Both the position numbers and the translations under genes were made by a program. This document shows, in pieces, positions 58,893-60,560 of a stretch of DNA of 64,000 nt. Origin of the DNA: Escherichia phage vB_EcoM_AYO145A; sequence record KR014248. One strand, 5' to 3'. The notes under the pieces were generated by a model, which saw only the letters and a program-made list of their open reading frames with translations, did not search any database and was not told where the DNA came from. Position 1 is the stretch's first letter, and each line of letters begins with the position of its first letter.

Positions 58893-59175
58893 TTATAAGG
58901 CTACTGCCATCCTTCCATACCTTACCTTACCACACCTAACCATACCTAACCAAACTACACCATACAATACCTTGTTAAAAGACCCTTTTAAAGACCTTTT
59001 AAAAAGGTAAGTCTCATTTTAATGTAGTTGAGACTAGCTACCCATACTTTACCTTACCATACCAGACCTCACCCCGCCTTACCGCACCAGACAGCACAAT
59101 GCAGTACAGTACCTTATTAAAAGACCCTGTTTAAAGACATTTTAAAAAGGAGCCTCCGAAGAGGCTACCTAGTCA
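58893..59175. repeat. direct repeat A: C/A-rich CCTTACC-type tracts plus conserved hairpin core
   Basis: about 60 nt (AGACCTTTTAAAAAGGTAAGTCTCATTTTAATGTAGTTGAGACTAGCTACCCATAC) nearly identical to the core of repeat B. Confidence 0.7.
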
Positions 59176-59177
59176 AC

Positions 59178-59618
59178 TTAGAAAGGTTTTCTACGTTGCT
59201 TGTTAATATTAGCTTTCATAGCAGCTAAATGGTTTTGCTGTTCAATTAGTCGTGAACGTTCTTGATGACTAAGTGCCATAGTGTTCACATTCTCAATTGC
59301 TTGAGTGGCTTGCTTTAAAGCGCGACCAATCTTACCAGACATTTTACGTTTTGCAATAGTTGCTTGATGCTTAGGTTCGACAACACGATAACCAACACCC
59401 ATTGAAGCAACCAGATAAATCTTCTCTTCTTTAAGAAGCTTCTCAATAAACTTCTCAAGTCGATTTAAGCGTGTAAGTGCGTAAGCTTTCATTTCATCTT
59501 CGTACTTAACAATGTCACCTTGATAAGTTGGCTTCACAATACCTAAGAAGGTATCCATCTCAGAGTGTGATACAGTGTCACCGTAACTAAACTTTGCTGC
59601 TAATGCTTTTGTATTCAT
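59178..59618 (-). CDS. hypothetical protein
   Basis: 146-aa ORF between the two direct repeats. Confidence 0.5.
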   Translation of the reverse strand: MNTKALAAKFSYGDTVSHSEMDTFLGIVKPTYQGDIVKYEDEMKAYALTRLNRLEKFIEKLLKEEKIYLVASMGVGYRVVEPKHQATIAKRKMSGKIGRALKQATQAIENVNTMALSHQERSRLIEQQNHLAAMKANINKQRRKPF

Positions 59619-59620
59619 AA

Positions 59621-60223
59621 TTAAACGTTACCTTCTGAAATAACTTCTACAGAAAAACGACCAAAGCGTGGACGCCAATCACCTACACCACAAAGGTTAC
59701 CAGCATTTTCAAGAACCATCAGAAGTTCCTCTTTGGTGATTTGCTCTTCATCGAACATCAAACCGAACTCTACAGACCAGTCACGGAAGATTGGACGGTA
59801 GCTCATAACTCGTGCTGTACCAATCTTAACAGACTTAGCATAGATGAAGTCTGGATTCTTAGCAAGTTCTTGTGGGTTTGCTGGGCAGTTCTTGATAGTC
59901 ATTGGGAAGACTACATCTGTCAGCATAATGGCTCGGTCAATTACCTTACCAAGTTTGTTGAGTTTTGCACCAGACTTGATACAAGCCTCAATCATCTCAC
60001 CGTTCATAACAAAACCTAGCTGCTCATCGTAGTAACAAGAAGTTACCAGTTGGCTTTCTGCTAAGAGCGCATAGTCTTCGTCAGTCTTTTTACGTTTACT
60101 GGACAGAGACTTGTGATATTTCGTCAGAGGGTTTAATGGGTCTGACAACGTATCGTTATGGCTCAAAAAAGGACGAGTACCAGTGATTTTGATATTTAAC
60201 AGTTTCATAGCATTTAGCTCCAC
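59621..60223 (-). CDS. hypothetical protein
   Basis: 200-aa ORF between the two direct repeats. Confidence 0.5.
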
Positions 60224-60298
60224 ACTTTAGTTGATTGTTAAGTTGTTTGTAAAGAACCCTCAACAGAAGACTCTTTAGAAACTTGGTAGATTTTTAAC

Positions 60299-60560
60299 GT
60301 GGCTACTACCATCCACCCATACCATACCGAGCCTTACCTTACCAAACCAGACCGCGCCTTACCAAACCAGACCAAACATTACTTTACCCTACCTCATTAA
60401 AAAACCCTCTTAAAGACCTTTTAAAAAGGTAAGTCTCATTTTAATGTAGTTGAGACTAACTACCCATACCGAACCTCACCGCACCATACTACACCTGACA
60501 CCACCTTACACCACCTTACACCACCGCACCATACCTGACCGAGCTACACATCACTTAAAA
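60299..60560. repeat. direct repeat B (partner of repeat A)
   Basis: GTGGCTACTACCATCC start, CCTTACC/CACCTTACA tracts and the same hairpin core. Confidence 0.7.

Follow-up and report, generated by a model that had tools for sequence, protein, structure and literature searches.

VIPR (Viral Interference Programmable Repeat) is a newly described form of RNA-guided DNA recognition that has been proposed to be older than CRISPR (clustered regularly interspaced short palindromic repeats). Its central protein, Vipr, is a minimal RAMP with an RRM core, a G-loop and a thumb; it is related to Cas5/6/7 and is usually encoded together with one accessory gene (vap). The guide RNAs of the system, called vrRNAs, are composed of 9-16 YNNGG repeats and an invariable 3' tail, which is a pseudoknot in the SUSP1 clade. 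Internal degeneracy is reported to be frequent among them. In SUSP1, the vrRNAs are made as ~100-nt RNAs; they were recovered together with purified Vipr, and DNA that matches them is repressed in its transcription. One Vipr protomer is bound per repeat, with the GGY bases sequestered. The NN bases pair with a target in which one base in three is skipped; double-stranded DNA is held in an R-loop triplex and its transcription is silenced. The vap1 gene enhances this silencing, and the accessory protein is predicted to bind DNA. In the SUSP1 clade, 18 of the 20 guides with identifiable targets aim at an E. coli phage satellite (bioRxiv 10.64898/2026.04.26.720920, 10.64898/2026.04.26.720927). The locus considered here lies on the minus strand at 58835-60645 of a 64,000-nucleotide stretch of Escherichia phage vB_EcoM_AYO145A (KR014248), which was analysed as a whole and is referred to below as the window. 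With a probability of roughly 0.93, it is a type II VIPR locus of the SUSP1 clade, working by the published mechanism and with guides aimed at E. coli satellites. The VIPR system is already known from the 2026 preprints, and the present locus is a further member of the published SUSP1 clade.

The best matches of the window are Felixounavirus genomes (91-96% identity; Felix O1-like myovirus), whereas SUSP1 belongs to Suspvirus. The window shares with SUSP1 the gene order, the vrRNA arrays on both sides of the genes, the GGY-NN pentamers, and the tails with their classes and pseudoknot, and the predicted target is the same kind of satellite. The differences are found in the guides. The window has two vrRNAs upstream and two downstream, as against one and three in SUSP1. 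All four of its guides are different, and vrRNA1 carries a 2-unit duplication. What the window offers is an instance of this system from a Felixounavirus, with guides of its own and with concrete predicted targets.

The genes that surround the repeat locus are all on the minus strand. A two-gene minus-strand block had been placed between the repeats by the earlier note, and this block does sit there and consists of vipr and vap1. The upstream gene, given at first as 59621..60223, is real, but its start is most likely the ATG at 60208 and not the GTG at 60223. From this ATG a protein of 195 amino acids is encoded. A GGAG lies 8 nt upstream of it, and the same start is used by the solved SUSP1 protein.

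No family was found in Pfam for either the 195- or the 146-amino-acid protein, and in PHROGs both occur only in families of unknown function. Among solved structures, a profile of 31 family members matches a single one, chain D of PDB 36pp ("SUSP1 Vipr protein"), with an expectation value (E) of 2.4e-82. The window protein alone matches 36pp_D with E 6e-128 and is identical to it at 191 of 195 residues. The residues for GGY reading and for DNA contacts, as listed in the cryo-electron microscopy preprint, are all kept in their positions (H17, K33, R39, E71, M72, K82, G87, K88, R138, C173, D177, W178, and R179). The AlphaFold2 model of Vipr has a predicted local distance difference test (pLDDT) score of 93. 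Its best fold matches in the PDB (Foldseek) are all Csm3/Cas7 RAMP subunits of CRISPR complexes of types III-A and VII; E values against Csm3 and type VII Cas7 start at about 6e-5, and the template modelling (TM) score is about 0.5.

Class 1 CRISPR backbones, in which Cas7/Csm3 is assembled on CRISPR RNA, share with VIPR the RAMP/RRM fold, the use of one protomer per fixed RNA step, and a thumb that flips bases out periodically. VIPR differs from them in that its guide reads 2 of every 5 nt with a 1-nt target skip, in that it is phage-encoded, and in that it silences without cleavage. No CRISPR repeat-spacer array, cas1/cas2 or large subunit was found at the locus, which holds pentamer tracts, four ~140-nt units, and two genes without a Pfam match.

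The Vipr family has at least 520 members in a large protein collection, including members from Rhodococcus, Streptomyces, and Xanthomonadaceae prophages. A search of viral contigs with the 195-amino-acid protein recovered 17 close loci and six distant ones (37-40% identity). The six distant homologues are encoded by GC-rich metagenomic phages in other genomic contexts. Five of these six also have pentamer tracts beside the gene: L025 carries GGTNN tracts, and L021-L024 carry GGCNN tracts. These tracts are located upstream, between the two genes, and downstream, and they often end in a T-run right before the ribosome-binding site. The remaining distant locus, L020, has one short tract only, about 670 bp downstream. 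Since tracts and gene co-occur across such large evolutionary distances, a local duplication accident is ruled out. A 99.5% identical copy of the window vipr is also held by GU169904.1, a 147-kb record named "Staphylococcus phage SA1". This record is probably chimeric or mislabelled, because its host label is at odds with an enterobacterial Felixounavirus gene.

The second protein of the block, with 146 amino acids, is identical at 145 of 146 positions to the product of the gene after vipr in phiSUSP1, and its gene is therefore vap1. The structure model of Vap1 is of low confidence (pLDDT 66), and its order of helices and strands resembles a winged helix.

The repeats occupy the intergenic regions 58791-59177 and 60224-60652. 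Their own positions, 58893-59175 (repeat A) and 60299-60560 (repeat B), are as the earlier note placed them. Two ~270-bp repeats had been described, and both are real; each, however, is a tandem pair of ~140-nt units, which gives four units in total. All four are on the minus (coding) strand and are referred to as vrRNA1 to vrRNA4 in the order of transcription (Table 1). Each unit consists of a short box, 11-15 GGY+NN pentamers, and a conserved ~40-nt tail. When at most one mismatch is allowed, GGTNNGGTNNGGTNNGGT has 29 matches in the window against 0.07 expected. These matches are on the minus strand only and are confined to 58914-59088 and 60321-60540. The near-identical core that had been reported for the two repeats was recovered at 58969-59046 and 60391-60468, with 73 of 78 positions identical and with the AGTCTCA...TGAGACT hairpin inside it. 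The core is equivalent to one tail and the next box. Given this core, the similarity of the two repeats is not of the low-complexity kind only. Beyond the 78 nt, the likeness between A and B is a periodic (NNACC)n pattern and not common sequence, and the alignment of the full repeats has 196 identical positions in 310 aligned columns.

The tracts were extracted from 20 Ounavirinae loci. For phiSUSP1 (L017, KT454805.2), the extraction recovers one vrRNA upstream and three downstream, the same as published. Across the 20 loci there are 61 different trimmed guide tracts of 7-16 units, and the number of vrRNA units per side among relatives goes from 0-1 up to 3. The entropy of the two NN positions is 1.96 and 1.92 bits over 642 pentamers, while the low entropy at pentamer positions 1-3 is partly due to the extraction rule. 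The tails fall into a few conserved classes. Class P can be drawn as ..((((..[[[[[[[.)))).......]]]]]]]...... and is 100% paired over 15 variants, with three pairs changed on both sides (AGTCTCA/TGAGACT vs AATCGGA/TTCGATT). Class Q, which includes the tails of the satellites' own vrRNAs, is 95% paired and has four pairs changed on both sides; the covariation reflects few tail classes, so that it represents few independent events. When the pseudoknot partners were slid by 1-3 columns as a control, at most 47% were paired. Within the window, the tail of vrRNA4 carries compensatory changes relative to that of vrRNA2. A search of Rfam found nothing relevant in the locus.

The guide set of the window is a mosaic of guides that are found in different phages. 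The NN guide of vrRNA2 is identical in L003 and L010, where the units differ only at the GGY pyrimidine, and in L001 (tootiki) one further 5' unit is different. The vrRNA3 tract is identical to one in phage Mushroom (L002), and the vrRNA4 guide is also present in L001, L002, and L015. vrRNA1 has a 10-nt (2-unit) tandem duplication, with GGTGGTGTAA occurring three times, when compared with the L011 version and with the target described below. Versions without the extra copy are present in relatives, as in L011.

The earlier note had suggested that the repeats were recombination scars or duplicated regulatory leaders. In its full form, this explanation gives them no role as guides and takes them as substrates or scars of recombination, or as duplicated leaders for transcription, that belong to a mobile cassette of two genes. 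The absence of the cassette in about half of the relatives, the deletion-like junction in Felix O1 (both described below), and the presence of a terminator-like element and a conserved box in each unit are what it would account for. It is nevertheless very unlikely, as it leaves unexplained the strict 5-nt GGY periodicity with hypervariable NN, the presence of such tracts in unrelated phages next to homologues of only 37-40% identity, the compensatory tail changes, and the identity with an experimentally shown guide-RNA system. The repeats are instead vrRNA genes that flank vipr and vap1.

The tracts could also be seen as binding arrays, either for a TRAP-like attenuation ring on RNA or, on DNA, for a centromere of the ParR/parC kind; or they could act as two-tetrad G-quadruplexes or as C-rich antisense Rho-loading sites. 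The 11-15 triplets with 2-nt spacers resemble a TRAP site, the arrays around a two-gene operon resemble par2 of plasmid pB171, and the plus strand is C-rich and G-poor. These explanations are scarcely credible for this locus. Pfam gave no match to TRAP, ParA/ParR or a related family for either protein, the 195-amino-acid protein is a RAMP with 98% identity to Vipr, and the periodicity is already explained by the solved filament of Vipr and vrRNA. A partition system would be of no use to this phage, which is virulent. The TRAP-trp leader RNA of Bacillus can serve as an analogy only. There, an oligomeric protein reads about 11 triplets that are 2-3 nt apart, but the fold is unrelated, the leader is cis-acting, controls a terminator and has no guide function, and the triplets are (G/U)AG as against GGY here. 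The TRAP-like ring, the ParR/parC-like centromere, the G-quadruplexes, and the Rho-loading sites were dropped once the protein was identified as Vipr. The same was done with T7-type primase sites, Chi-like sequences, and a terminase pac site.

The likely targets of the VIPR guides can be inferred from the genomes of E. coli. When complete E. coli genomes were searched by BLAST with the locus, 152 of them turned out to contain an unannotated sequence of ~90 nt that resembles vrRNA2. This sequence sits in satellite-like chromosomal islands of ~11 kb that contain genes for a serine recombinase, baseplate and tape-measure proteins, an HNH endonuclease, small open reading frames, and sometimes a Dam methylase. 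The islands are integrated at three or more sites, including wrbA/ymdF, tonB/yciI, and yecD. Related islands are present in 537 of 5,426 complete E. coli genomes. The islands carry one unannotated vrRNA and no vipr gene (L026-L038; for example, L030 3600-15400 and L034 600-11400). Such solo vrRNAs of E. coli satellites, seen here in L026-L030, are mentioned in the 2026 preprint. They share with the phage vrRNAs the pentamer tract and the class Q tail, with compensatory stem changes GTCG/CGAC. They differ from them in having no adjacent vipr and in being located in chromosomal islands, and the Vipr of a helper phage is presumably used.

The islands were scanned for targets with the published 1-nt skip and with the constant last GGTAT unit dropped; the scan covered 13 islands of roughly 537 satellite-bearing genomes. 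When this rule was checked with the guides of relatives, many matches of 86-100% were found inside islands and about 60-70% in the flanking chromosome, as published. The first satellite scanned, L026, gave noise-level matches only, and the targets emerged with 13 satellites and with the GGTAT unit dropped. vrRNA4 matches at 18 of 20 NN positions (0.90) in L030 (11485-11513) and L034 (8799-8827), and a match as good was reached by 1 of 200 shuffled guides. This site overlaps the -10 hexamer and the start region of the promoter, TTGACA-17-TAGTAT, from which the leftward operon of the island begins. vrRNA3 matches at 21 of 26 NN positions (0.81), with 8 perfect units, in the gene for a Dam-like N6-adenine methyltransferase (L035 9887-9924; 0/200 shuffled guides as good). 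With these values, vrRNA3 and vrRNA4 both lie above the 80% NN match that was published as the minimum. vrRNA1 has 8 consecutive perfect units in the tape-measure gene of L032, L035, and L038 (0/200 shuffled as good). Its six 5' units fit the same tape-measure site in another register, and since the two halves fit in two registers, vrRNA1 has a 2-unit duplication relative to its target. By coordinate arithmetic, the base that is skipped in each of the two coding targets is the third of its codon, which agrees with the report in the preprint.

For vrRNA2, 8 perfect units are found in an intergenic box of L026, L030, L031, and L034 (2/200 shuffled as good). Over the four guides, whose sites are all inside islands, no more than 3 of 200 shuffled guides did equally well. 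This predicted target is much like the phage box and lies after a terminator in the satellites (L034 6579-6601). The five boxes of the phage itself fit vrRNA2 at only 13-14 of 18 positions. Judging from these alignments, vrRNA2 may target a promoter-like box that is common to satellites and phage, with 4-5 NN mismatches that spare the boxes of the phage. No self-target of at least 80% was found within the window, where the best self-match is 0.71.

Several points weigh against the VIPR reading, or against parts of it, in addition to the small share of the islands that was scanned, the effect of the extraction rule, and the few tail classes. Over the full length, the NN match is 0.64 for vrRNA1 and 0.71 for vrRNA2, which is noise level, and for these two only the local 8-unit runs stand out. 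The duplication in vrRNA1 puts its guide out of register with its target. Exact 1-nt-skip patterns made from the last 10 units of each guide had 0 matches in the viral contigs of IMG/VR. Several 5' units have TGT, AGT or TGC in place of GGY, and parts of the guides with such units may be inactive. A fold search with the pLDDT-66 model of Vap1 gave no significant match.

Some of these points could also indicate that the locus is VIPR by descent and is partly obsolete, with vrRNA1, by its duplication, and the 5' half of vrRNA3 decaying and no longer silencing. The degenerate units, the 10-nt duplication, and the noise-level full-length matches of vrRNA1 and vrRNA2 would fit this, and the decayed solo unit of vipr-less relatives indicates that decay occurs in the lineage. 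Partial decay is considered unlikely here, as both reading frames are intact and 98-100% identical across many phages, the key Vipr residues, the tails, and the pseudoknots are all intact, frequent internal degeneracy of vrRNAs is noted in the preprint, and vrRNA3 and vrRNA4 reach the published NN match.

If the locus is an active VIPR system, its parts would be used in the order promoter, vrRNA1, vrRNA2, vipr, vap1, terminator, vrRNA3, and vrRNA4. Each vrRNA would be an RNA of ~100-120 nt with 11-15 GGY-NN pentamers and a pseudoknot as its 3' cap. Vipr would polymerise on it with one protomer per pentamer, burying GGY and exposing the NN pairs as a gapped guide. The guide would then read double-stranded DNA as NNxNNx... 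and transcription would be blocked, an effect that vap1 would strengthen. vrRNA4 would be directed to the -10/start of the promoter of the satellite's leftward operon, vrRNA1 to the tape-measure gene, vrRNA3 to the Dam-like methylase gene, and vrRNA2 to the promoter-like box after the terminator. Expression of the vrRNAs and silencing in this phage are inferred from the 98%-identical SUSP1 system.

Table 1. Features of the putative VIPR locus of Escherichia phage vB_EcoM_AYO145A, in the order of transcription (positions in the window).
Feature	Position	Strand	Remarks
Sigma-70-type promoter, TTGACA-16-TATACT	60618..60645	-	11/12 consensus matches; just past ligase gene, pointing into first unit
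Box before vrRNA1, GTCTTCTAAGAGGGTTTTTAAG	60554..60575	-	One of five box copies
vrRNA1 guide tract, 15 pentamers (GGTCA ... GGTAT)	60466..60540	-	
vrRNA1 3' tail, class P; H-type pseudoknot GTAG/CTAC + AGTCTCA/TGAGACT, then T-run	60426..60465	-	
Box before vrRNA2	60396..60418	-	
vrRNA2 guide tract, 15 pentamers (GGTAG ... GGTAT)	60319..60393	-	
vrRNA2 3' tail, class Q; H-type pseudoknot GTGG/CCAC + GGTAG/CTACC	60283..60318	-	
Box before vipr, AAAGAGTCTTCTGTTGAGGGTTCTTTACAA	60247..60276	-	
vipr, 195-aa RAMP-fold protein	59621..60208	-	PDB 36pp_D homology, key residues, fold model
vap1, 146-aa accessory protein	59178..59618	-	Identity with phiSUSP1 gene
Intrinsic-terminator-like hairpin AGCCTCTTCGGAGGCT + T-run	59151..59166	-	Directly 3' of vap1
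Box before vrRNA3, GTCTTTAAACAGGGTCTTTTAA	59117..59138	-	
vrRNA3 guide tract, 14 pentamers	59044..59113	-	First five units TG for GG
vrRNA3 3' tail, class P; pseudoknot with AGTCTCA hairpin	59004..59043	-	
Box before vrRNA4	58975..58996	-	
vrRNA4 guide tract, 11 pentamers	58917..58971	-	
vrRNA4 3' tail, class Q; AAGG/CCTT + GGCAG/CTGCC	58881..58916	-	
Array-closing hairpin, 19-nt arms + T-run	58835..58882	-	

The strong promoter at the upstream end of the locus is likely the start of transcription into the upstream vrRNA pair and vipr. It is retained in Felix O1 ahead of the solo unit of that phage. A box with the consensus AAGrGTCTTyTAArAGGGTyTTTTAA precedes each vrRNA and vipr, and it is rare elsewhere in the window. 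This conserved box may be a promoter or a processing signal. At the downstream end, the array-closing hairpin overlaps a TTGACA-17-TATTTT promoter of the next gene (58407-58790). At another place in the window, 15229-15807, there are dense 10-11-bp tandem repeat arrays (TGTTAAGAACT, TGTAAAGACTA, and AAGAGCTATA, plus a 62-bp period) with motifs that look like half of the vrRNA box. These arrays might be iterons or regulator binding sites.

The block had also been proposed to be a cassette that is gained or lost, and the comparison with relatives bears this out. vipr (>90% identity) is found in about 116 phage records, as against 258 relatives that match the flanking genes. The block is not uniformly conserved, and about half of the relatives are without vipr-vap1. 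In the 86,155 bp of Felix O1, both vipr and vap1 are absent throughout. Between its ligase gene and ORF87 there is a solo unit of the vrRNA type, the only one kept at this site (L040 1192-1473; NC_005282 57753-57817). The left flank of this unit is the promoter, leader, and box of vrRNA1, and its right flank is the tail of vrRNA4. Since these flanks match the first leader and the last tail, the junction is the one expected from a deletion between direct repeats. On this sequence comparison, the solo unit looks like a remnant left by a single deletion between the first and last units. It may be such a remnant, or it may be an orphan guide that is able to use the Vipr of a co-infecting phage. 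These repeats are not mentioned in the paper on the Felix O1 genome, as would be expected when that phage retains no more than a single decayed unit. The solo unit recurs in Si3, VpaE1_ev78, and Pr103Blw (L043, L044, and L045), with GG decaying to AG or TG. Mooglevirus relatives have nothing at this site.

The repeats are functional RNA genes, and it is plausible that they also serve as recombination substrates through which guides are added, removed, and swapped. A more specific proposal, which is tentative and to which we give somewhat less than even odds, is that the vrRNA units are exchangeable cassettes bounded by the 5' box and the 3' pseudoknot tail. Homologous recombination between these bounds among co-infecting Ounavirinae, possibly also with satellites, would then shuffle, duplicate, and delete guides. 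If this is true, the exchange of units would be a Cas1-free renewal of the guide repertoire, and its extreme case would be the deletion of vipr-vap1 that leaves the solo unit of Felix O1. That about half of the relatives are without the cassette, and that the junction suggests recombination between guide units, bears on how VIPR guide repertoires change.

Apart from the locus, a 27-bp tandem repeat of 2.7 copies (89% match) was found at 52024-52093 of the window, in apparent coding sequence.

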